This document shows, in pieces, positions 16,720-28,355 of a stretch of 28,378 bases of DNA (the first letter of the stretch is position 1; the number at the start of each line of letters is the position of its first letter). The stretch is from Promethearchaeota archaeon. Its GTDB lineage: Archaea; Asgardarchaeota; Lokiarchaeia; Sigyniarchaeales; SOKP01. The notes below the pieces were generated by a model that saw only the letters and a list, made by a program, of their open reading frames with translations, did not search any database and was not told the origin of the DNA. The stretch spans positions 1-28,378 of the forward strand of contig JBHLPW010000059.1 in NCBI GenBank assembly GCA_048939015.1. Direction: 5' to 3'. The translations under genes were made by a program, and so were the position numbers.

Positions 16720-19191
16720 TTGAGGAAATTGAAAAATCAAACTCAAAAATCAGATAATATAAATAAGCAATTACTAAAATGTTTAGCATTATTGAAAGGA
16801 AGGGAATATAACAAGACTCTATCATTAGTAGATGATATTTTAAATGATAAGTTCGGTCAACAAGACGTAACTCAGAAATTTGGTGCTAGAATAGCAAGAT
16901 TGGTAGCATTAATGGGATTAAAACAATATGATCAGGTTAATACGGATATTAAACTTACTGAGCTGATAATAGGTCAAATGAATAATGATGATAAGGATAG
17001 TTCCATCATTAAGGAAGGTATTGCTAGGTTCTTTTCGATAAAAGGTGCTATTCAATCTACTCAAGGAGAACTTGAAGATTCAATTGAGAATTATGAACAT
17101 AGCGCAGAGATTTATGAAAATTTGAACGATAAAAAATCAAAATATGTCCAATTTGAAGCTATTGGTTGGATTAAACGAGCTCAAGGTAAATTGGATGAAG
17201 CATTGAATTATTTCCATAAAATGTTAAATCTTGCTAAAGAATTTCAAGATGAAAAGTATATCGCAAGATCTAAATTCTCAATTGCATTTGCAAATTTCTA
17301 TAAAGGGGATTTAGATCAAGCAGAAGTATATGCCAAAGAGTGTTTAGCAATTTATGAAAATTTAGACTATTTTAGAGGACTTGCAGCTATATATACAGTT
17401 TTTGGATCAATATACCGTGGAATAGGTGAATTTGATAAAAGTTTAGAATATTATCATAAAGTATTGAGTATGTTCAATGAAAAATCAGATATTCAAAAGG
17501 GAGTGACACATAGTTATTGCTATTCTCTTAGAAATATTGGATGGATTTACTATTATAAAAATGAAATAAAAAAATCAATTGAATACCTTCAAAAAGCAGT
17601 AAAAGCACATAAATCTTTATGTGAATCATATAATACTATATTAGATTACGATCTTATTGTATTTTATTTATTATTGGTTCAATCGGCTGTTGAAATTAAT
17701 GATTTGAACCAAATTGAAGACTCAATGAAAGAGCTTTCTAAATTTTCTCACAAATGGACTTGGTCTAGTATATTTAGGAAATTAGGCGAGGCTATAATAT
17801 TGAAAAATAAACGACGTGCGAAATATCGATTTCAAGGACAACAAATTTTAGAAGATATTCTTGGTGCAAAATTTGATTATCAGTTTGAATTTATGGTCCA
17901 AGTAAATCTGTGTGATTCTTTGTTAGAAGAATTGAAATATTCTGGATCAGAAGATATCCTTGTTGAAATTCAAGATTTACTTAATAGGATCTCTAGTATT
18001 GCGTATAGACAGCGATCTATTATAACATTGGTCGAATTATATTCCCTTCAAGCAAAACTTGCTTTAATTGAAGGAAATGCTGAAGTTTCAAAAAGACTAT
18101 TAACTAAAGCTCTCACAATTGCAGAAAATAAAGGATTGGAGTTGCTTTCTAAAAAATTAATACTTCAACAGAATCAAGTTTTCAATCAAATAGAGGAATG
18201 GAAAGCTTTGTTTATTCGTCATTCACAATTACAAGAGAGAATTGAGCTTTTAAATCTTAAAGAGTATGTAACAGAAGCTATAAGTGATGTCTTAGAGAAG
18301 AAATTTAAGATTGAAAAGAAATACAATATATCCTACAAAGATTTACTCAAAGAATATCCTAAAATCCAAAGAAGAGAATGTAGAGTTGGAATAGCTCAAA
18401 TAGGGCTTTCCAAAACCGGAGATATTTTAAATGAATTTTTTGAATTAAAAACTTCAGGACTATTAGGGCTTAAAGAAAATAAAAAAGAGAGTGTCAAATC
18501 AACTTTTAAAAATATGGTAGAGAAGGCTAATACTAATGGTATTAATATTCTCATCTTTCCAGAAATGACAATTGACTTGAATTATGAAATTTTTTTAAAA
18601 GAACTATTAAATTTAGCTAAAATTTATGACATGTACATAATTCCAGGCTCTTATCATGATCAAGCTACTAAACGTAATTTAAGCATAGTAATTGGCCCTG
18701 AGGGAATTCTCTGGGAACAAGAAAAGCATATACCCGCCTTAATACATTTTGGAGGAAAAAAATTTAAGGAAATGATAGATACAAGCTCCTTTCCTCGTAA
18801 TATAATCGTTTGTAATACCGAATTTGGAAGAATAACCATTCTTATATGTCGAGACTTCTTAGACATGGATCTTAGAGTAGAATTAAAAAATTTTGAACCC
18901 CCCGTAGATATCATTATTAATCCCGCATTTACACCTGTTACAGCTGATTTTAAAGCCGCACACTTTGATGCTCGGAGATCTATATATGGTTATTGTTTCT
19001 TCGCGAATGTTGCCGAATATGGTGAGTCTCATATTTATACACCAGAAAAGGATCGTACTGAAAGATTAATACCTTCGAAAGAAGAAGGTTTGATATATAA
19101 AGATATAGACTTATTTAAATTACGCTCAGAACGTAAAAAATGGGAAAAAGAACAAGCTAAGGAGAGATTATTTATACAAAGTACAAGATAA
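16720..19191 (+). CDS. TPR-repeat protein fused to C-terminal carbon-nitrogen hydrolase (nitrilase superfamily) domain
   Basis: N-terminal ~500 aa of TPRs ('GWIKRAQGKLDEALNYF', 'GSIYRGIGEFDKSLEYY'). From ~18380: 'RVGIAQ', 'IFPEMT', 'IIPGS', 'QEKHIP', 'FGRITILICRDF', 'NPAFT', 'FANVAEYGES'. Confidence 0.88.
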   Translation: MRKLKNQTQKSDNINKQLLKCLALLKGREYNKTLSLVDDILNDKFGQQDVTQKFGARIARLVALMGLKQYDQVNTDIKLTELIIGQMNNDDKDSSIIKEGIARFFSIKGAIQSTQGELEDSIENYEHSAEIYENLNDKKSKYVQFEAIGWIKRAQGKLDEALNYFHKMLNLAKEFQDEKYIARSKFSIAFANFYKGDLDQAEVYAKECLAIYENLDYFRGLAAIYTVFGSIYRGIGEFDKSLEYYHKVLSMFNEKSDIQKGVTHSYCYSLRNIGWIYYYKNEIKKSIEYLQKAVKAHKSLCESYNTILDYDLIVFYLLLVQSAVEINDLNQIEDSMKELSKFSHKWTWSSIFRKLGEAIILKNKRRAKYRFQGQQILEDILGAKFDYQFEFMVQVNLCDSLLEELKYSGSEDILVEIQDLLNRISSIAYRQRSIITLVELYSLQAKLALIEGNAEVSKRLLTKALTIAENKGLELLSKKLILQQNQVFNQIEEWKALFIRHSQLQERIELLNLKEYVTEAISDVLEKKFKIEKKYNISYKDLLKEYPKIQRRECRVGIAQIGLSKTGDILNEFFELKTSGLLGLKENKKESVKSTFKNMVEKANTNGINILIFPEMTIDLNYEIFLKELLNLAKIYDMYIIPGSYHDQATKRNLSIVIGPEGILWEQEKHIPALIHFGGKKFKEMIDTSSFPRNIIVCNTEFGRITILICRDFLDMDLRVELKNFEPPVDIIINPAFTPVTADFKAAHFDARRSIYGYCFFANVAEYGESHIYTPEKDRTERLIPSKEEGLIYKDIDLFKLRSERKKWEKEQAKERLFIQSTR

Positions 19192-19238: not shown

Positions 19239-20318
19239 TTAATTTATTTGAATAGGATAATGTCCATATTTCTCAATTGTTTTAGGAATTGCTAAGATAT
19301 TTGGAATGGGTACTCCCCATGGTAAGCTACAAACAGGACAACAAATATATCTACCCCCAGGAGCTAAGTTTAAGATGTTTTCTTTTACCTTTCTTTCAAC
19401 ATCAGAAGGTGTTCCTGTGAACAATTCTCGACTAACATCAATATTAGCTCCAATAATTACTATTTTTGGGTATCTCTTTTTAAAATCAATCCAATATTCT
19501 ATATCTAACGGATGACTACCATTAACAGCAATAAAGTCAATTTCATTAACAACTTCTGTGAAATAGGGAGAAGTTCCACAATTATGAAGCATAAAAGGAA
19601 CTTCTATTTTATTCATCATTCTCTTAATAAATTGCCCTTCATAGCGCATAGAATCTTGAAAACTCATCATATGACGATTAAATGCATAACCTGCTATAAA
19701 AACGTTAGGAGGCATACCTACAATTTCAAGCCAATTCTCATAAATATCCATTTGGGATTCATAAATTTTTTCACACAGTTTTAACAATAAATCCGGATTT
19801 CGACGAATATCTTTATAAGCTTCTAAACCACGCAATTCTTGGACAACAGACCAAATACTTAAACTGATTACTTGGGGAAATTTAATTTTTTCATTAATCA
19901 TCTTTGCAGCTTGTAAGGAATTTTTCCATAGACTATTCTTGCCATGATCTGGAATTTCCAATTTATCAATATCTTCTTCAGTTTTACAAATTTCTCCTTG
20001 TTTACACATTAGAGGTTGATAATCAAACCATTTAATAGCATCTAATTTATTATTTGCTTCCGCAAATGCTAAACCTTCACTTGGTCCCGCGTAAGCACTT
20101 GGAACATTTATAGAGTCGGTATTTAAAAACTCAAAAGTCGTTATTATAGCATTAGCATAAATTTTCGGAGAACTATATAATTCTTTTACAGTTTTACCAG
20201 TTACTCGACAAATCATTTGTTCACCAGCGAATGCTAGGTATGGAACTTTATCAACTCTTTTTGATCCTGATATTGTCCTAAATATTCTATTTACAGAAGC
20301 AACCCAATCTTTTACCAA
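19239..20318 (-). CDS. Methylcobamide-dependent methyltransferase, MtaA/CmuA (URO-D fold) family
   Basis: 'VDKVP', 'EGLAF', 'ELRG', zinc-type motif 'LHNCG', 'GANID', 'GTPSDV', C-terminal 'CCPVCSLP'. TTG start supported by an SD. Directly downstream of a corrinoid protein gene. Confidence 0.85.
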   Translation of the reverse strand: MVKDWVASVNRIFRTISGSKRVDKVPYLAFAGEQMICRVTGKTVKELYSSPKIYANAIITTFEFLNTDSINVPSAYAGPSEGLAFAEANNKLDAIKWFDYQPLMCKQGEICKTEEDIDKLEIPDHGKNSLWKNSLQAAKMINEKIKFPQVISLSIWSVVQELRGLEAYKDIRRNPDLLLKLCEKIYESQMDIYENWLEIVGMPPNVFIAGYAFNRHMMSFQDSMRYEGQFIKRMMNKIEVPFMLHNCGTSPYFTEVVNEIDFIAVNGSHPLDIEYWIDFKKRYPKIVIIGANIDVSRELFTGTPSDVERKVKENILNLAPGGRYICCPVCSLPWGVPIPNILAIPKTIEKYGHYPIQIN

Positions 20319-20328
20319 TTTATTCTTA

Positions 20329-20334
20329 CACCTC
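20329..20334 (-). promoter_or_regulatory. Shine-Dalgarno GAGGTG upstream of TTG start of methyltransferase
   Basis: CACCTC on the + strand, about 10 nt upstream of 20318 on the - strand. Confidence 0.6.
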
Positions 20335-20341
20335 TATTGAT

Positions 20342-20977
20342 TTAAATTAAATTATTTATCTTTTTAATTCCTTCCCAGCCATCTTTGGCAAAATCATCTG
20401 CTCCAATCATTTCACATGATTCTTTTGACAATATTCCACCACCAACTATTATTCTCGCCTGTAAGTTTTCATTCTTAAGCAGATTAACTGTTTCCACCAT
20501 TTTAGAGATACTCATTGTCATTAATCCACTTAATCCTATCAGAATAGGTTTTATTTCTTTTGCTTGTCGAAGAAACTCTTCTGGTGGAACATCAGATCCT
20601 AAATCAACTACATCAAAACCTTGCCCTTTTAATAGTGAGACTACTAAACTCTTACCAATATCATGGATATCACCCTCTACAGTTCCAATTAAAATAGTCC
20701 CTTTAGACTCTATTTCAGATTTTTCATGTAATAAATTCTTTAATTTTTCAGTAACGGCTGAAATAGCATCACCAGTCATTAATAAGTCAGGAAGAAAATA
20801 TTCTCCCTCTTCATATAAATTCCCTGCCTCATCAGCGCCTTTTAGAATTGCTTCATTCAAAATCTCTTTGACTTTTATTCCCTTTTTAATTAATTTATTA
20901 ACTAAATCAATTGCTTTGTTTGGATCCCCTTTCAAAATAGCGCTTTTTAATTTTTCTAACGATTCTTCTTCATTCAT
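20342..20977 (-). CDS. Cobalamin-binding corrinoid protein (MtaC/MtbC/MttC-like)
   Basis: N-terminal cap domain ('G.LYEEGEYFLPDLL'). B12 motif DxHxxG 'GTVEGDIHDIGK', 'DLGSDVP', 'GLSGLMT', 'IVGGG'. Confidence 0.95.
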   Translation of the reverse strand: MNEEESLEKLKSAILKGDPNKAIDLVNKLIKKGIKVKEILNEAILKGADEAGNLYEEGEYFLPDLLMTGDAISAVTEKLKNLLHEKSEIESKGTILIGTVEGDIHDIGKSLVVSLLKGQGFDVVDLGSDVPPEEFLRQAKEIKPILIGLSGLMTMSISKMVETVNLLKNENLQARIIVGGGILSKESCEMIGADDFAKDGWEGIKKINNLI

Positions 20978-21229: not shown

Positions 21230-23212
21230 TTAACCTACTTCTACATCCATTTTCTTGCGGTCTTCTAATAGAGCATCTACGACAGAAGGATCAGCTAAGG
21301 TGGTTACATTTCCAATGTCAGTTCCTGCTGCAATAGCCTTTAGAATTCTACGCATTATCTTACCACTTCTTGTTTTAGGTAATGCATCAGCAAATTGAAT
21401 CACATCAGGTTGAAAAACTGGTCCAATTTCATTTCTTACATGCATCCTTATCTCTTTAGACAATTTTGCTGATTTCTCTACACCTTGCATTAGAGTTACA
21501 TAAGCCCAGATTGCTTGACCTTTAATTTTATGTGGAAAAGGAGCAACAGCAGCTTCTGCTACTTGTGGATGGCTTACTAAGGCTGATTCAACTTCCATAG
21601 TGCCAATTCTATGACCCGATACTTTAATTACATCGTCTAATCTACCTAAAATCCAATAATAACCATCTTCATCACGTCTTGCACCATCTCCAGTGTAATA
21701 ATGACCGGGATATCGTTCTAGGTAAGTTGAAATAAATCTTTCAGTATTGCCCCAAACATCTCTTAACATTCCAGGCCAAGGTTGAGCCATTGCAAAATAA
21801 CCCCCTTCATTAGGTTCTGTGATTACATCCCCTTCTAAGTCAAATATTACTGGTTTAATCCCTAAGAAAGGCATACAACAAGATCCTGGTTTTGTGGGGG
21901 TTGCTGTAGCAATTGGAGTCATAATAAAGCCTCCAGTTTCTGTTTGCCAGTAAGTATCAACAATGGGGCAACGTTCTTTACCTACTATACGATGATACCA
22001 AGTCCATGCTTCAGGGTTAATAGGTTCTCCAACAGTCCCTAATACTTTTAAAGAACTAAGATCATGTTTATTTACCAATTCATTACCAAACCTCATTAGT
22101 GCACGTATTGCAGTGGGTGCTGTGTAGAAATGCGTAACTTTATGATCTTCACAGATTTGCCAAAACCTATCATTATCAGGATAAGTAGGTACACCCTCAT
22201 ACATAAGAGTAGTCGCTCCATTCGCTAATGGACCATAAACAATATAACTATGTCCGGTTATCCATCCTATATCAGCAGTACAATACCAAATATCGCTTTC
22301 ATGATAATTAAATACAACTTTATGAGTAAACGAAGTATAAAGGATATAACCTGCAGTTGTGTGTTTGACACCTTTAGGTTTCCCAGTTGTGCCACTGGTA
22401 TAAAGAATAAATAATGTGTCTTCAGAATCCATAATTTCGGGTTCACACACTTCACTCATGCCTTCAATAAATTCATGATACCAGATATCCTTATCAGTAT
22501 GAGGAACTTCATTTCCTGACCGTTTAACTACAATCACATGCTCAATAGTGGGAACATCATCAATAATTTGAACTACATCAGCCATTTTTGGATAGAACTT
22601 TCCTGCTCGTACAGTCTCATCACTAGTAAATAGTAGCCTTGAGTCTGAGTCATCAATTCTATCTTTTACTGCTTCTTTAGAAAATCCTCCAAATACAATT
22701 GAATGAATGACTCCAATTCTAGCACATGCTAACATAATTATTGCTAATTCTGGTACCATTGGGAGCCATATGGTAACTCGATCTCCTTTTTTTAAACCAA
22801 GATTTTTCATTCCATTTGCTACTTTATTAACTTCCTTTAAAAGTTCACTATATGTATAAGTCTTAGCTTGACCAGGTTCATCAGCTTCCCATATAATAGC
22901 TAATTTATCTCCTTTGCCAGCCTTCACATGTCGATCCAAGCAATTGAACGCTACATTTAGTTTTCCTCCAACAAACCATTTTCCTGGAAATAAGTCTGTT
23001 TTTTCCCATACTTTTTCATAAGGTTCTATCCATTCAAGTGTTTTTGCTTGATTTCCCCAAAATCCTTCCATATCTTCGATGGATTGTTGATATAGCTTTT
23101 TATATTCTTCTAAGGACATCCCTGTTGCCACAAAATCGGGATTTAAGTTTTTTGGATCAAAAATTCTGTTTTCTGTTAGAATACTTTCCATTTTCTTGTC
23201 TTTTTCAGACAT
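21230..23212 (-). CDS. acs: Acetyl-CoA synthetase (AMP-forming), acetate--CoA ligase
   Basis: 'NCLDRH', 'YTSGTTGKPKG', 'TADIGWITGHSYIVYGPL', 'VGEPINPEAW', 'DTYWQTETG', 'TGDG', 'GRLDDVIKVSGHR', 'LPKTRSGKIMRR'. Confidence 0.97.
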   Translation of the reverse strand: MSEKDKKMESILTENRIFDPKNLNPDFVATGMSLEEYKKLYQQSIEDMEGFWGNQAKTLEWIEPYEKVWEKTDLFPGKWFVGGKLNVAFNCLDRHVKAGKGDKLAIIWEADEPGQAKTYTYSELLKEVNKVANGMKNLGLKKGDRVTIWLPMVPELAIIMLACARIGVIHSIVFGGFSKEAVKDRIDDSDSRLLFTSDETVRAGKFYPKMADVVQIIDDVPTIEHVIVVKRSGNEVPHTDKDIWYHEFIEGMSEVCEPEIMDSEDTLFILYTSGTTGKPKGVKHTTAGYILYTSFTHKVVFNYHESDIWYCTADIGWITGHSYIVYGPLANGATTLMYEGVPTYPDNDRFWQICEDHKVTHFYTAPTAIRALMRFGNELVNKHDLSSLKVLGTVGEPINPEAWTWYHRIVGKERCPIVDTYWQTETGGFIMTPIATATPTKPGSCCMPFLGIKPVIFDLEGDVITEPNEGGYFAMAQPWPGMLRDVWGNTERFISTYLERYPGHYYTGDGARRDEDGYYWILGRLDDVIKVSGHRIGTMEVESALVSHPQVAEAAVAPFPHKIKGQAIWAYVTLMQGVEKSAKLSKEIRMHVRNEIGPVFQPDVIQFADALPKTRSGKIMRRILKAIAAGTDIGNVTTLADPSVVDALLEDRKKMDVEVG

Positions 23213-23623
23213 CTTACTTCACATTTATTAGCTTTTTTTCGCTTAAAGTTATGTTTATTTGTTAATTAACTAAATTCTATAAAAATTTTAAAGATTTCTT
23301 TCTACCCTCATCATTTTTAAAGTTTTTGGTTTAATATGAACAAGAGGGAATCAAGTGAAAATTATTTTGTATAGTTTTTAAACATTTTATTTATAGATCA
23401 ATTAAAATCAGCCACATTTCATAGGATTTGATAATCTAGAAATCTGAAACATTAATTTTTTATTAAAGAAGTAAATCCTTCAGTTGAGAATAAGTATAAT
23501 TCTTAAACCAATTTTATTTATACTTTCAAATACAATATAATATTGTTATTTTTAATTGAATATTACATGTTAAATAATATTTAACTAAAAGATGTAGAAA
23601 ATTTGAGGGAGTGGATCAATTTC

Positions 23624-25516
23624 ATGACATTTGATTGGAGGGAAAAGTGGAAAGATAAAGAAATTACAGCTCAAGAAGCAATTGATAAAATTATCCCAGG
23701 TAATAGAGTTTTTATTGATTCTGGATGTTCTGAGCCCCAATTATTAACATCAGAGTTAATTAAACACTCAGAGAAATTAATTGATACTGAAATACTTCAC
23801 TTTCTAACTATAGGCCCAGAAAAATACTTTAAGGATAAGGAAGAAGACCTATTTAGACATAATGCATTTTTCATTGGTAAGACTCTTAGAGAAGAAATTA
23901 ATAGAGGTCAAGCAGATTATACACCGATTTTTACTAGTGAAATTCCCTCTTTATTTCTAACAGGTAGAAAACATATTGATGTTGCTCTTATCCAAGCTAC
24001 TCCACCTGATCCTTATGGTTTTTGCTCTCTAGGTATTAATGTAGACATTGCCAAACCAATTGCTCAATCATCATATATGACTATTGTTGAAATTAACCCA
24101 CAAATGCCAAGAACTTTAGGAAATAGTTTTATACATATGAAAGAAATTGATTATTTTGTTTATAATGATACTTCTTTACTAGAATTTATTTTTGAAAAGC
24201 CTGATGAAATTGCTAAAAGGATTGGTAAAAATCTAGTAAATTTAATAGAAGACAAATCTACTATCCATGTAGGTTTTGGTGATTTGCCAAATGCAGTATT
24301 ACCATTTCTGACAGAAAAGAAGGATCTTGGAATGCATTCTCATTATATTACTGACAATATAATACCTCTTATTGAAGAAGGAATTTTAACATGTAGAAAA
24401 AAAAATTTTCATCCTGAAAAAATTATAACTAGTTTTGCTCTAGGAACTAAAAAATTGTATGATTTTGTACATAATAATCCTTATATTGAATTTTACCCCT
24501 CAGATTATGTCTGTAATCCTAGATATATTGGTATGAATAAAAAGATGGTTTCTATAAACTCAGCAAGACAGATTGACTTAACTGGACAGATAAATGCTGC
24601 AACAGAGGGATATAGATTTTATTCTGGATTAGGTGAAACAATAGATTTTATGAGAGGTGCTGCTTTTTCTAAAGGAGGTAAACCAATTATAATTATTCCA
24701 TCAACATCAAGAGATGGAAAAAAATCACGAATAGTTGCTCATTTGGATGAAGGTGCGGGGATAATGTTGTCGCGTGGAGATGTTCATTATGTAGTAACTG
24801 AATGGGGAGTTGCTTATCTCCATGGTAAATCAATTAGAGAAAGAGTACTTGAATTAATTTGCATAGCTCATCCAAATTTTCGTCAATCATTATTAGATGA
24901 AGCAAAAAAACTTAATTACATTTATTCTGATCAACTACTTGCGTGTGATGCAAAAGGGAATATTTGCATATATCCGACTCAATATGAAACTATTTATTCC
25001 ATATCAAATAAAGAAAAAGTAAGAATTCGCCCTGTAAAAACTACTGATGAACCATTACTAAGAGATTTATATTATTCATTAAGTGAAAGAGATAGATATT
25101 TAAGATTTTTTGAATTAAAAAAAGAATTTACTCATTCTAAAACTCAATTTGAAGTGAATATAGATTACAACGATATCTTTTCTATTGGCGCATTTATAGG
25201 CGAAATTGGAAAAGAAGAGATGATAGGAAATGCGACTTATTATTTAAATCCCAAAATAAATATGGGAGAGTATAGTTTCCTCGTTAGAGATGATTATAGA
25301 GGAAAGGGCATTGGTGGATTTCTTTATCAACATATTGTTATTATTGCAAAAGAGAGGGGTTTAAAAGGGCTCTATGGAAATATTCACATTCAAAATAAAA
25401 GTGCTGTTCGTATTATTAAAACCGGGGGATATACAAAAATTACCCCGCCTTCATCACTTGAAGAAAAAGAATTATTTTATGAAGTTTTTTTTGATAAAGA
25501 AGACTCCATGGAATAA
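23624..25516 (+). CDS. Acetyl-CoA hydrolase/4-hydroxybutyrate CoA-transferase-like domain fused to C-terminal Pat-like GNAT acetyltransferase
   Basis: 'GRKHIDVALIQATPPD..G.CSLG', 'EINPQMPRT.G', 'SINSA..IDLTGQ', 'DFMRGA..SKGGK', 'DVHYVVTEWG.A.L.GKS..ER...LI.IAHP.FR'. GNAT: 'IRPV...DE', 'SLS...RYLRFF', 'VRDDYRGKGIG'. ATG 23624 preceded by GAGGGAGTGG (ORF track TTG 23603). Confidence 0.9.
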   Translation: MTFDWREKWKDKEITAQEAIDKIIPGNRVFIDSGCSEPQLLTSELIKHSEKLIDTEILHFLTIGPEKYFKDKEEDLFRHNAFFIGKTLREEINRGQADYTPIFTSEIPSLFLTGRKHIDVALIQATPPDPYGFCSLGINVDIAKPIAQSSYMTIVEINPQMPRTLGNSFIHMKEIDYFVYNDTSLLEFIFEKPDEIAKRIGKNLVNLIEDKSTIHVGFGDLPNAVLPFLTEKKDLGMHSHYITDNIIPLIEEGILTCRKKNFHPEKIITSFALGTKKLYDFVHNNPYIEFYPSDYVCNPRYIGMNKKMVSINSARQIDLTGQINAATEGYRFYSGLGETIDFMRGAAFSKGGKPIIIIPSTSRDGKKSRIVAHLDEGAGIMLSRGDVHYVVTEWGVAYLHGKSIRERVLELICIAHPNFRQSLLDEAKKLNYIYSDQLLACDAKGNICIYPTQYETIYSISNKEKVRIRPVKTTDEPLLRDLYYSLSERDRYLRFFELKKEFTHSKTQFEVNIDYNDIFSIGAFIGEIGKEEMIGNATYYLNPKINMGEYSFLVRDDYRGKGIGGFLYQHIVIIAKERGLKGLYGNIHIQNKSAVRIIKTGGYTKITPPSSLEEKELFYEVFFDKEDSME

Positions 25517-25565
25517 ATATTCAAAATTTTTATTTCTCTTCCTTAATTTATAATTGTGTTTACTA

Positions 25566-26360
25566 ATGCGATTCAAATATACAGATTTTCATGTACATAC
25601 TAAACCTTGGAGTGTAGATGTACCAGAAGATGGTCCTACATTTGAAGATTATATAAAAGTAGCAGAAGAGTATCAGATTAATATTTGTTTTCTTGATCAT
25701 TATGAACTCCATTATGTGGAGAATGACAAGACAAATCCATTTTATAATGGAAGAGTCAATGATTATCTTGAAGAGATCGATAAATATAAAGAAACATATG
25801 ATTTCATATTAAGCGGCCTAGAAATTGAGTACTATAAAGATCGTGAGATTCAACTCATTGAATTCATGGATGATTATGCAAAAGAATTTGATTTTCTAGG
25901 AGGATCCGTTCACGAATGGATAATTGGTTATCCAATTACGACGAAAAAGGGACTAGCTAAACTGCTTAGAAAAATACCAATGAAAAAAATAATAGATAAT
26001 TATTTTGAATTAATTACTAGAATGATTAATTCACAAATTTTCAAAAATATATGTCATATTGATACAATTTTTCGTTACATTAATAATAATGAATTCGTAC
26101 CTACAGAAGATTGTGATGTATCTGATAACCGAGTATTAGATATAGGTCGTCTTTGTATAAAAAACAAGATAAAAGTAGAATTAAATTTGTCTGGTTTGCG
26201 ATTTCCTATAAAGAGAACATTTCCATCGATAGAAATAATGAAACAGTTAAGGAAAGAAGGAAGTGAGTTTTTTGTTGGATCTGATTCACATTCATTAGAT
26301 TATTTTAAAGATAAGATTCCTAAGCTAATAGAATCTTATAGATTATTGAATCCACTTTAA
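25566..26360 (+). CDS. PHP domain phosphoesterase (histidinol-phosphatase HisJ/HisK-like)
   Basis: 'DFHVHT', 'FLDH', 'GLEIEY', 'GSVH', 'CHID', 'ELNLSG', 'GSDSH'. ATG at 25566. Confidence 0.9.
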   Translation: MRFKYTDFHVHTKPWSVDVPEDGPTFEDYIKVAEEYQINICFLDHYELHYVENDKTNPFYNGRVNDYLEEIDKYKETYDFILSGLEIEYYKDREIQLIEFMDDYAKEFDFLGGSVHEWIIGYPITTKKGLAKLLRKIPMKKIIDNYFELITRMINSQIFKNICHIDTIFRYINNNEFVPTEDCDVSDNRVLDIGRLCIKNKIKVELNLSGLRFPIKRTFPSIEIMKQLRKEGSEFFVGSDSHSLDYFKDKIPKLIESYRLLNPL

Positions 26361-26382
26361 AAAAGATAAACATCCAAATATT

Positions 26383-27102
26383 ATGGAGTTCAAAGAATTT
26401 TCAAATAGAATTGATAAATGGGACCAAAAGATTATTTTGAAATACAATGGATTTGGAGGTAAAACAATCACAATAATTTTAAGAATAATTTCTTTCTTAG
26501 GAAGAGAAACTTTATGGCTTTTCTTAATTGCGTTCTATTTATTTATTTGGTATGATCCTTTTTTATTAGCTTATATTTCTGCTACATTTCTCACGGGTTT
26601 AATTTTGATTTTAATAATTAAACAAACTGTTAAAAGAAAAAGACCTTTTGAGAGATTTAAGGAAAACCAAATTGTAGCTCTTGAGCGAGAGCCTTCTTCA
26701 AGAAGTTTTCCATCTTGGCATTCTTATAACGTTATGGCACAAGGCTTATTATTCGGATTATTCTTTATGAATTCTCTTTTTATAATCATTTTAATTATAA
26801 TTATCACTATAGTTGTATCCTTCTCAAGAATTCAGCTGGGTGTACATTATCCTTCAGATGTTATATTCGGTTGCATTTTTGGGATTATTGGGTTTTTAAT
26901 AACAGTTTATCTAACTGGTCCCCTTATTTTTCAAATATTAAGATATCTTGAGCAATTTATAGAACTTGAAATACAATATCAACAAATAAATTCAATGCTT
27001 TTTAATAATATAGGTTATATCTTGCTAACTTCTAGTATTTTACTAATAATTTTTTTTTTAGCAATTAATAAAACAATAAAAGAGCGATTAAAAAGGGATT
27101 AG
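26383..27102 (+). CDS. PAP2 family membrane phosphatase (lipid/polyprenyl phosphate phosphatase)
   Basis: C1 'KQTVKRKRP', C2 'SFPSWH' (PSGH variant), C3 'SRIQLGVHYPSDV'. Multi-TM. Confidence 0.92.
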   Translation: MEFKEFSNRIDKWDQKIILKYNGFGGKTITIILRIISFLGRETLWLFLIAFYLFIWYDPFLLAYISATFLTGLILILIIKQTVKRKRPFERFKENQIVALEREPSSRSFPSWHSYNVMAQGLLFGLFFMNSLFIIILIIIITIVVSFSRIQLGVHYPSDVIFGCIFGIIGFLITVYLTGPLIFQILRYLEQFIELEIQYQQINSMLFNNIGYILLTSSILLIIFFLAINKTIKERLKRD

Positions 27103-27110
27103 ATGAGTTT

Positions 27111-28355
27111 CTAAAGGTCTAATCTTCGTCTTTTCCCAAATAAATCTTTTAACTCATTTAATACCTGCAACCTGGCACTTTCTTGAGGTCTTGCAGATGG
27201 TTGATTTGGGTTAGCAATTTCAATTGGGATTCCACTTTGCGCAACTTGAAACGCTCCGGATTCTATTGCTCTAAGTCGACTGTCCAAGTCATTGAGTTGA
27301 GTAGAAATACTTTCCGAGAGTCTAATAACCGCATTTAATGTTTCTTCCAATGTTTTTCCTAGACCCTCAACTTTCTTAACAGTTGGATCTGTAAGAGAAT
27401 AAGTAGAACTCATAAGTTTCTTTATATATTTTGCAAATTGAGGTTCTGTTGAAATTAAAGAATATATTGAAGTTAAATATATTTCGACATGTAAGTCATA
27501 TTGCTTTTTCTTAAGGAATTCATTTATATTATCTTTTAAAAGTTCGATATTTAGAAGAATCTTGGGATCATTTTTTAAATCAGGATCATATTTATGGATG
27601 AAAATTAAAATGTATGGATTTTCTTCTAGAATTACTAGAGAATTAATAATTTTCTCTAAATATTCAAGAGATTCATCAAATCTTTCTGGATCTTGTACAT
27701 CAATTACATAAATCAGTAAATCTAATTCTAGAAAATATTGTTCTGGATTACTTAAATACCTTTCTCGATATTCCACTTGCCCGCCAAGGTCCCAAATGAA
27801 TAAATTTAGTTTACTATTACCAAATTTCATTCGGACAACGCCTTTCGTTGGATGTGTTGAAATCATGTCACCTATTCCTAAACGTCCACCAAATTTTGAT
27901 AATGTTGCTGTTTTTCCTGCATTGTCTAACCCCGCTACAAGTACCTTTTGCACAGATTCTTCGATCCCCTGTTTATCTTCTTTAACACTTACAATAAGTG
28001 AGCTAATTGTTATTGTTTTTTTTAATTTTTTTTCAAGAGTAGGGTACTTTTCTTTTAATTCCTCAAGTTTTTGTTGTAAACTCATGGCTATTTCAATTGA
28101 ATCGTCAGTCTCTTCAATTTCGGTTAATGTTTCAAATGGATTATCTTTATTTAACTTAGAAGCATCTCCAATAGTAGAAATTTCTAAAAGCTGTTTCATT
28201 ATTGTTGATTCTTCCTTATCTATAAATTTATATGATTGAAGAGGTAATTTAATAATGTCTTCGATCTTATGGAGTTTACTAATTTTAACAGAATCAGGAT
28301 CCAAAAATTTCGAAAACACTTTTATAAAACTAGAATTTGAAGCTTCTGAAGACAT
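27111..28355 (-). CDS. Multidomain Arf/Rag-like small GTPase with N-terminal extension and C-terminal coiled coil
   Basis: G1 GLDNAGKT, G2 'PTKG', G3 WDLGGQ, G4 HKYD, G5 TSIY. About 135-aa N-terminal extension. C-terminal heptads 'LGKTLEETLNAVIRLSESISTQLNDLDSRLRAIE'. Confidence 0.9.
   Translation of the reverse strand: MSSEASNSSFIKVFSKFLDPDSVKISKLHKIEDIIKLPLQSYKFIDKEESTIMKQLLEISTIGDASKLNKDNPFETLTEIEETDDSIEIAMSLQQKLEELKEKYPTLEKKLKKTITISSLIVSVKEDKQGIEESVQKVLVAGLDNAGKTATLSKFGGRLGIGDMISTHPTKGVVRMKFGNSKLNLFIWDLGGQVEYRERYLSNPEQYFLELDLLIYVIDVQDPERFDESLEYLEKIINSLVILEENPYILIFIHKYDPDLKNDPKILLNIELLKDNINEFLKKKQYDLHVEIYLTSIYSLISTEPQFAKYIKKLMSSTYSLTDPTVKKVEGLGKTLEETLNAVIRLSESISTQLNDLDSRLRAIESGAFQVAQSGIPIEIANPNQPSARPQESARLQVLNELKDLFGKRRRLDL

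Follow-up and report, generated by a model that had tools for sequence, protein, structure and literature searches.

In a 28,378-nucleotide stretch of an Asgard archaeal genome (contig JBHLPW010000059.1 of a Promethearchaeota archaeon, assembly GCA_048939015.1; the whole stretch is called the window below), the acs gene for an AMP-forming acetate--CoA ligase (Acs) lies head-to-head with a second gene, in which a CoA-transferase-like domain is followed by a Pat-type GNAT acetyltransferase domain (the fusion; Table 1). By analogy with the bacterial Pat systems, we give a probability of about 0.6 to the reading that the two form a Pat-like switch, in which the GNAT would acetylate Acs at Lys618, a sirtuin or HDAC would reverse the modification, and the CoA-transferase-derived domain, itself non-catalytic, would have a regulatory or scaffolding part. 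That Acs is switched by reversible lysine acetylation in bacteria and eukaryotes is textbook biochemistry. In archaea such control has, to our knowledge, been little studied, and our literature search found no study of it in Asgard archaea.

The proposed switch is modelled on Pat/PatZ, whose dead domain binds acetyl-CoA. With acetyl-CoA as donor, the GNAT of the fusion would acetylate Lys618 in the active site of the neighbouring Acs, and other AMP-forming acyl-CoA ligases would probably be acetylated too. The modification would block adenylation by Acs until a sirtuin or HDAC-type deacetylase of the genome removed the acetyl group. The N-terminal domain, which would descend from a 4-hydroxybutyrate-type CoA-transferase, would no longer catalyse transfer in the lineage of the window (family f1 below) and would have been kept for its regulatory or scaffolding role. 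Its most likely part is to bind acyl-CoA or CoA or to make the enzyme dimeric, and the acetyltransferase activity would in this way track the acetyl-CoA/CoA state. What the analysis itself establishes is the domain architecture, the missing catalytic motifs, the conservation, the linkage of the genes and how the Acs C-terminal domain fits in a model; the acetylation of Acs, the ligand binding by the N-terminal domain and the direction of the regulation we infer.

The presumed target was assigned by profile scores. Acs (P0001) reaches 981 bits against the NCBIfam acetate--CoA ligase model NF001208 (cut-off 657) and 951 bits against TIGR02188 (cut-off 725). It is the sole close Acs of the 4.86-Mb genome, which has about 20 AMP-forming ligases, the next of them being 30% identical. 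When Acs is aligned with HMMER to Salmonella Acs (1pg3/2p2f), Lys618 falls on K609 and Leu648 on L641, and both residues are invariant among 23 Acs sequences from three Asgard families. A first-pass annotation of this DNA had singled out the same PX4GK lysine codon and had matched the 'VVDALL' segment to Leu641 by eye. The alignment bears out both assignments, and the head-to-head spacer, which that annotation had put at about 410 bp, measures 411 bp.

The GNAT at the C-terminal end of the fusion is Pat-type, judged by its profile and database matches. Its top relatives in the PDB are E. coli PatZ (9isq/9it0, E=9e-14) and S. lividans SlPatA (4nxy, 6e-13), with Sulfolobus SsPat (3f8k) and mycobacterial MtPat (4oll) as further relatives, and in this PDB sequence search the scores of small-molecule GNATs are worse by about 9 orders of magnitude. 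The NCBIfam model 'acetyltransferase Pat' also matches the fusion, with E=1e-10. The N-terminal signature of the domain reads 'IRPVKTTDEPLLRDLYYSLSERDRYLRFF'. This Pat segment ('RP..D...L..F...S..S.Y.RFF') aligns with Pat GNATs, as do the conserved Glu (Glu556) and motif A, and 'GEYSFLV' aligns with 'AEFAVLV'. Glu556 would be the general base, as the equivalent Glu is in MtPat and SlPatA. Motif A, defined as R/Q-x-x-G-x-G/A (PMC8556138), is present as RGKGIG, and the earlier description of a Pat-type GNAT with an intact motif A therefore holds.

A model of the complex was built from GNAT residues 445-637 and the Acs C-terminal domain (525-660). Its ipSAE is 0.81, compared with 0.01 for the best control; of 80 solved complexes 58 came up to that mark, as did 2 of 110 mismatched pairs. 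The runs agreed in at least 93% of contacts, with a partner pLDDT of at least 89. In this model Lys618 of Acs contacts GNAT residues 501-504, 558 and 593, and Glu556 contacts residues 614-616. Since a like complex, the SlPatA GNAT with the Acs C-terminal domain (4U5Y), has already been solved, the model is to be read as likeness to 4U5Y and not as proof of binding.

The N-terminal part of the fusion has the fold of an enzyme without its catalytic motifs. Its first ~440 residues match the PDB entry 9vag, of the 4-hydroxybutyrate CoA-transferase type, at E=2e-117, and score 104 bits with PF02550 and 202 bits with PF13336. The AF2 model of the fusion has a pLDDT of 91.9 and a pTM of 0.89, and Foldseek places it on 3gk7 and 2oas with TM values of 0.92-0.95. 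The two-domain fold of family I CoA-transferases is thus present, and both the catalytic Glu and the G-x-G-G-Q-x-D-F loop are absent. In family I CoA-transferases the catalytic Glu forms a covalent CoA thioester. The PDB entry 4eu9 is titled accordingly, as a 'covalent glutamyl-CoA thioester adduct'. The position of this Glu is taken by His247, which also corresponds, by offset, to E249 of RipA (3qli), a residue with E249A/D mutants in the PDB, and the replacement loop reads GLGETIDF in full.

This remodelling is shared by the orthologs, a set of 121 sequences that are 73-100% identical to the window fusion. The catalytic position holds His in 116, Tyr in 4 and Leu in 1, with Glu in none, and the loop is G-(D/E)-(T/S) in all 121. 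The inactivated state that the first-pass annotation had suspected is therefore seen, as the loss of both catalytic motifs, in every ortholog. Mean identity to the window protein is 82% over the CoA-transferase-like part, 78% over the GNAT and 58% over the linker. Since the domain is conserved above both the GNAT and the linker and has the loop replaced in every ortholog, it is, on this alignment, remodelled and constrained rather than eroding.

The same conservation can be read in another way, with the N-terminal domain as a working enzyme. It would use His247 or another residue, for example as an acetyl-CoA hydrolase or altered transferase, or would be an ordinary CoA-transferase in the acs-linked families f7 and f16, and would make or consume acetyl-CoA rather than sense it. 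The f1 replacements are conserved (His in 116/121, G-(D/E)-T), a pattern that points to remodelling of the site and not to decay, and the f7 and f16 fusions keep HTEM/HTEL and GGQ. Across the family, however, the thioester-forming Glu is swapped for the chemically unrelated G, A, V, P, F and I, and we consider it improbable that the domain acts as an enzyme.

The replacement of this Glu extends well beyond f1. CoA-transferase-GNAT fusions make up about 80 of the 150 best representatives at 50% identity, and they include bacteria, as had been noted at first pass; Desulfobacterales are an example. On many occasions in this family another residue took the place of the Glu: D, Q, V, F, H, C, G, P, T, I, A or S. 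Because it was lost so often to unrelated residues, CoA-transferase catalysis would be dispensable for the role of the fusion, and from the alignments we take these repeated replacements as the strongest argument that the function needs no such catalysis.

Some members carry additional domains. Two of them, P0161 (L130:5001-8042) and P0174, are triple fusions of CoA-transferase-like, GNAT and HDAC (PF00850) domains, about 955-1013 amino acids long, and have no catalytic Glu (HTDI and HSGL). They would hold a putative writer and eraser in one chain, as fits a reversible acetylation system. P0126 and P0127 (about 960 amino acids) have an N-terminal extension of ~340 amino acids with 4Fe-4S dicluster motifs, and Val or Gln in place of the Glu; they may be a redox-sensing variant.

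The Pat-like switch also rests on the gene neighbourhood. We fetched 80 related loci, labelled Promethearchaeota and the like, in keeping with the Asgard origin of the window, and counted as eligible the 50 f1 loci in which the sequence upstream of the fusion spans 2.7 kb or more. The acs gene is upstream and divergent in 48 of them, and within 700 bp in 33 of these 48. Two f1 loci (L022 and L051), with 2.4-3.0 kb of upstream sequence present, have other genes and no acs there; in L022 the contig runs out upstream, and an acs may lie farther away. At L070 and L080 the downstream synteny is gone and acs still adjoins the fusion, and at L063 the two genes are rearranged tail-to-tail.

Families other than f1 carry more weight. 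In the family labelled Thorarchaeota (f7), 9 of 10 fusions are divergent from a transporter-acs operon, in which a GPR1/FUN34/YaaH-family (SatP) channel or an MFS transporter is followed by acs. The f7 fusion is 44% and the Acs 56% identical to the window proteins. In f16 the fusion (40% identical) stands tail-to-tail with an Acs that is 80% identical to that of the window. The acs-linked groups of f1, f7 and f16 fall in separate subclades of the tree of the CoA-transferase domain. The linkage to acs is conserved, and it recurs in three Asgard families in three arrangements. Moreover, five f1 genomes without a fusion (four of genus g2, and G109; 89-100% complete) are also without Acs at E<=1e-60.

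These patterns bear on the possibility that the fusion acetylates proteins broadly, its many targets including the roughly 20 AMP-forming ligases of the genome and enzymes of central metabolism, and that its place beside acs reflects co-regulation or ancestry. This explanation overlaps with the Pat-like switch, because Acs would still be among the targets. Its appeal comes from the number of candidate ligases, from family members that adjoin citrate synthase, malic enzyme or unrelated genes, and from the many substrates of Pat/PatZ enzymes (PMC12184503). We nevertheless think it unlikely, given an acs linkage found in three families and three arrangements, of which one includes a transporter of the acetate type, and the joint absence of fusion and Acs from the same five genomes.

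The neighbourhood also raises the question of the genes downstream of the fusion. The GNAT could act on a small molecule, or on a lipid- or phosphate-related metabolite, together with the PHP and PAP2 phosphatases, with acs merely supplying acetyl-CoA. In f1 the synteny of these genes is near the level of acs (PHP 68/74, PAP2 66/72 and the small GTPase 62/65 loci). Fusion, PHP and PAP2 run in one direction with narrow gaps between them, and HDAC-family domains, like the one in P0161 and P0174, include acetylpolyamine amidohydrolases (PMC8556138). The fusions of Thorarchaeota and f16 keep their linkage to acs, and no PHP or PAP2 gene was seen beside them. The closest solved relatives of the GNAT are all protein acetyltransferases, and the model of the complex sets Lys618 of the Acs C-terminal domain into the GNAT site, a placement that it may owe to 4U5Y. 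With these points together, a small-molecule role appears to us a long shot.

Several points weigh against the Pat-like switch itself. The f1 orthogroup is confined to one GTDB family, and most of the 48 acs-linked f1 loci are not independent, as the whole acs-fusion-PHP-PAP2-GTPase block is syntenic. Because PHP, PAP2 and GTPase are about as syntenic as acs, the f1 synteny alone is weak evidence. The acs-linked fusions of f7 and f16 retain HTEM/HTEL and GGQ(V/A)DF, and since these catalytic motifs are kept, the CoA-transferase domain may have a catalytic role there. In genus g3, Acs is present, the sole fusion is a Glu-intact paralog, and the two genes are unlinked. Many other fusions are not near acs, among them the paralog in the window's own genome, those of f2, f18 (Heimdall-labelled), f22 and Desulfobacterales, and P0123, P0154 and P0278. 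At the level of the protein, the GET in place of the GGQ loop may mean that acyl-CoA (thioester) binding is weakened, not preserved. Finally, the complex model may owe its score to having memorised 4U5Y.

Two wider generalisations were rejected. The acs linkage is not general to the fusion family, as the own-genome paralog, f2, f18, f22, Desulfobacterales, P0154 and P0278 are unlinked. Nor is the linkage coupled to inactivation: f7 and f16 keep both Glu and GGQ, and the Glu-less P0123 and P0144/P0284 are not acs-linked. The idea that inactivation and acs linkage together form the new element, put forward in the first-pass annotation, had to be given up on these grounds. The synteny check across Asgard genomes that it had called for gave a divided answer. 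The linkage stands in 48/50 f1 loci and recurs in f7 and f16; it is not universal, and the f1 block is syntenic throughout. Compared with f7 and f16, inactivation is a feature of the f1 lineage and of P0123, its sister, and is not tied to acs linkage. P0123 has Phe at the Glu position and a GDS loop, and adjoins a malic enzyme gene.

Two further observations were made among the loci. Some Thorarchaeota have two tandem fusion genes (L107:6791-10857, also G152 C7 and G179 C52), the second with HTER and not HTEM. The contig DATKTW010000124.1 (L038), labelled 'Candidatus Nanopelagicaceae bacterium', carries the PHP, PAP2 and GTPase block together with a fusion of Asgard type (83% identical), and is probably a mis-binned Asgard contig.

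As for possible partners, the genome contains four SIR2 (sirtuin) genes and 3-4 HDAC genes, and the search for a deacetylase partner proposed at first pass thus returned candidates. One SIR2 gene, on contig 12 (33000-44000; L126:7892-8665, minus strand), is ~1.8 kb from two genes for AMP-forming acyl-CoA ligases and diverges from a gene for enoyl-CoA hydratase; this may be a regulatory neighbourhood of sirtuin and ligases. With the fusion GNAT as query, the only Pat-type GNATs detectable in the genome are those of the two fusions. The second fusion, on contig 22 (17260-19080; L097:8231-10138), is 52% identical and has intact HSEV and GGQVDF motifs. It lies between genes for methyl-accepting chemotaxis proteins (MCP) and two-component genes, divergent from an MCP gene, with no acyl-CoA ligase nearby. 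The genome also encodes a stand-alone 4-hydroxybutyrate CoA-transferase with intact HTEM and GGQVDF.

Compared with known systems, the fusion is most readily set beside Pat/PatZ (YfiQ) of Salmonella enterica and E. coli, which is paired with CobB. Both have a Pat-type C-terminal GNAT and a large N-terminal domain derived from an acyl-CoA-handling enzyme that lost its catalytic residue. In both, the target (presumed for the fusion) is the Acs Lys in PX4GK, with the L641 equivalent conserved and sirtuins present. The Pat/PatZ domain that resembles NDP-forming acyl-CoA synthetases is without its catalytic His and drives cooperative activation, and the regulatory domains of type I and II Pats are catalytically dead, bind acetyl-CoA and help to form the pocket for Acs (PMC8556138; PMC12184503). 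Unlike Pat/PatZ, the fusion has a regulatory domain with the family I CoA-transferase fold, not that of an NDP-forming acyl-CoA synthetase/ATP-grasp protein. It therefore falls outside types I and II, which are recognised by a regulatory domain homologous to NDP-forming acyl-CoA synthetase. It is also shorter (about 630 against about 886 amino acids), adjoins acs and has an Asgard host.

A second likeness is to the acsA/acuABC locus of B. subtilis, where the acetyltransferase gene is also divergent from acs (PMC13121692). There the HDAC-type deacetylase AcuC accompanies the writer; in the fusion family an HDAC-type eraser and a writer are joined in P0161 and P0174. Unlike the fusion, AcuA is a stand-alone type IV GNAT whose regulator, AcuB, acts in trans. 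The PDB search with the fusion GNAT returned no chain named AcuA at E<=0.01, and the fusion is not grouped with the AcuA type. The type III Pats (cAMP-binding MtPat, ACT-GNAT and NADP-binding MxKat) share the order of an N-terminal ligand-sensing domain, as the N-terminal domain of the fusion would be, followed by a Pat-type GNAT. The N-terminal domain of the fusion differs from theirs in being larger (about 440 amino acids), of another fold and enzyme-derived. With AbfT (3gk7), RipA (3qli) and the AcetylCoA_hydro enzymes it has the same fold over ~430 residues at 37-41% identity, and it differs from AbfT and RipA by His for the catalytic Glu, GET for GGQ and the added C-terminal GNAT.

By these comparisons, the fusion fits none of the five published Pat types (PMC8556138). 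The architecture itself is already named in databases, as 'acyl-CoA hydrolase/GNAT superfamily N-acetyltransferase', and one member has the RefSeq name 'bifunctional acetyl-CoA hydrolase/transferase family protein/GNAT family...'. Of the reviews and structural papers, PMC8556138 and PMC12184503 list known types only, and our literature search found no paper describing a CoA-transferase-type regulatory domain in lysine acetyltransferases, nor a study of the fusion. We put forward tentatively, at slightly less than even odds, that the CoA-transferase-GNAT fusions of Asgard archaea and bacteria make up one more type of prokaryotic protein acetyltransferase, the sixth, which has gone unrecognised. 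In this type the fold would have been repeatedly turned into an acyl-CoA/CoA sensor with independent losses of the Glu, gating Acs acetylation in several Asgard lineages and joined in some chains by an HDAC eraser.

If the Pat-like switch is real, the closest prokaryotic relatives of eukaryotes would run the Acs switch with a sensor from a different enzyme fold. A Pat-type GNAT would, for a second time and independently, have come under the control of a dead acyl-CoA enzyme. The fusion family provides natural pairs with the Glu intact and lost, sometimes in one genome, and this suits a study of how pseudoenzyme sensors evolve. For acetylome studies of Asgard archaea, the fusion also offers a specific candidate for the writer.

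Table 1. Coordinates of the features discussed, in window positions (strand: +, forward; -, reverse;., none).
Feature	Position	Strand	Basis or remark
Corrinoid protein (MtaC/MtbC/MtgC-like, B12-binding) and URO-D/MtaA-like methyltransferase genes	19239-20977	-	Downstream of acs
acs, AMP-forming acetate--CoA ligase (P0001), 660 aa	21230..23212	-	Open reading frame at these coordinates
Leu648 codon, in 'VVDALL'	21269..21271	-	Equivalent to Salmonella Acs L641
Lys618 codon (AAG), in PKTRSGK (PX4GK motif), predicted acetylation site	21359..21361	-	Equivalent to Salmonella Acs K609
Divergent intergenic region	23213..23623	.	411 bp, 21% GC
Fusion gene, CoA-transferase-like domain and Pat-type GNAT (P0002), 630 aa from ATG	23624..25516	+	PF02550, PF13336 and PF00583
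4-hydroxybutyrate-CoA-transferase-like domain, P0002 residues about 11-440, predicted non-catalytic	23633..24922	+	Profile, PDB and fold matches
His247 codon (CAT) at the catalytic-Glu position	24341..24343	+	Aligned with C. aminobutyricum AbfT (3gk7) E238
GETIDF loop, in place of the GGQ(V/L)DF loop of active enzymes	24632..24649	+	Alignment
Pat-type GNAT domain, residues 471-615, PF00583	25013..25447	+	Profile and PDB matches
Glu556 codon	25268-25270	+	Conserved Glu, invariant in 121 orthologs
Motif A RGKGIG, residues 566-571	25298-25315	+	Conserved in orthologs
PHP (HisJ-like) and PAP2 phosphatase genes, same direction as the fusion	25554..27102	+	Gaps 37 and 22 bp
Small GTPase gene, 414 aa, Gtr1/RagA and Arf matches, ~130-aa N-terminal extension	27111-28355	-	

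The window is AT-rich, with a GC content of about 30%. The database gene call for the fusion (P0003) starts at the ATG at 23624. An upstream in-frame TTG at 23603 would extend the open reading frame to 637 amino acids and reduce the gap to acs to 390 bp. The promoters of both acs and the fusion presumably lie within the 411-bp spacer. The spacer matched no Rfam family, and a repeat search in it gave weak AT-rich repeats only, with no convincing repeat or operator.

On the 3' side of the fusion, the HisJ-like PHP protein scores just under the TIGR01856 cut-off. The fusion, PHP and PAP2 genes may form one operon, in family f1 only. Downstream of acs, the corrinoid protein and the URO-D/MtaA-like methyltransferase make up a methyl-transfer module, which is kept next to acs in only 5/47 related loci. 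Farther along, at 16720-19191 on the plus strand, the window encodes an 823-residue protein in which ~500 residues of TPR repeats are joined to a carbon-nitrogen hydrolase (nitrilase-superfamily) domain.

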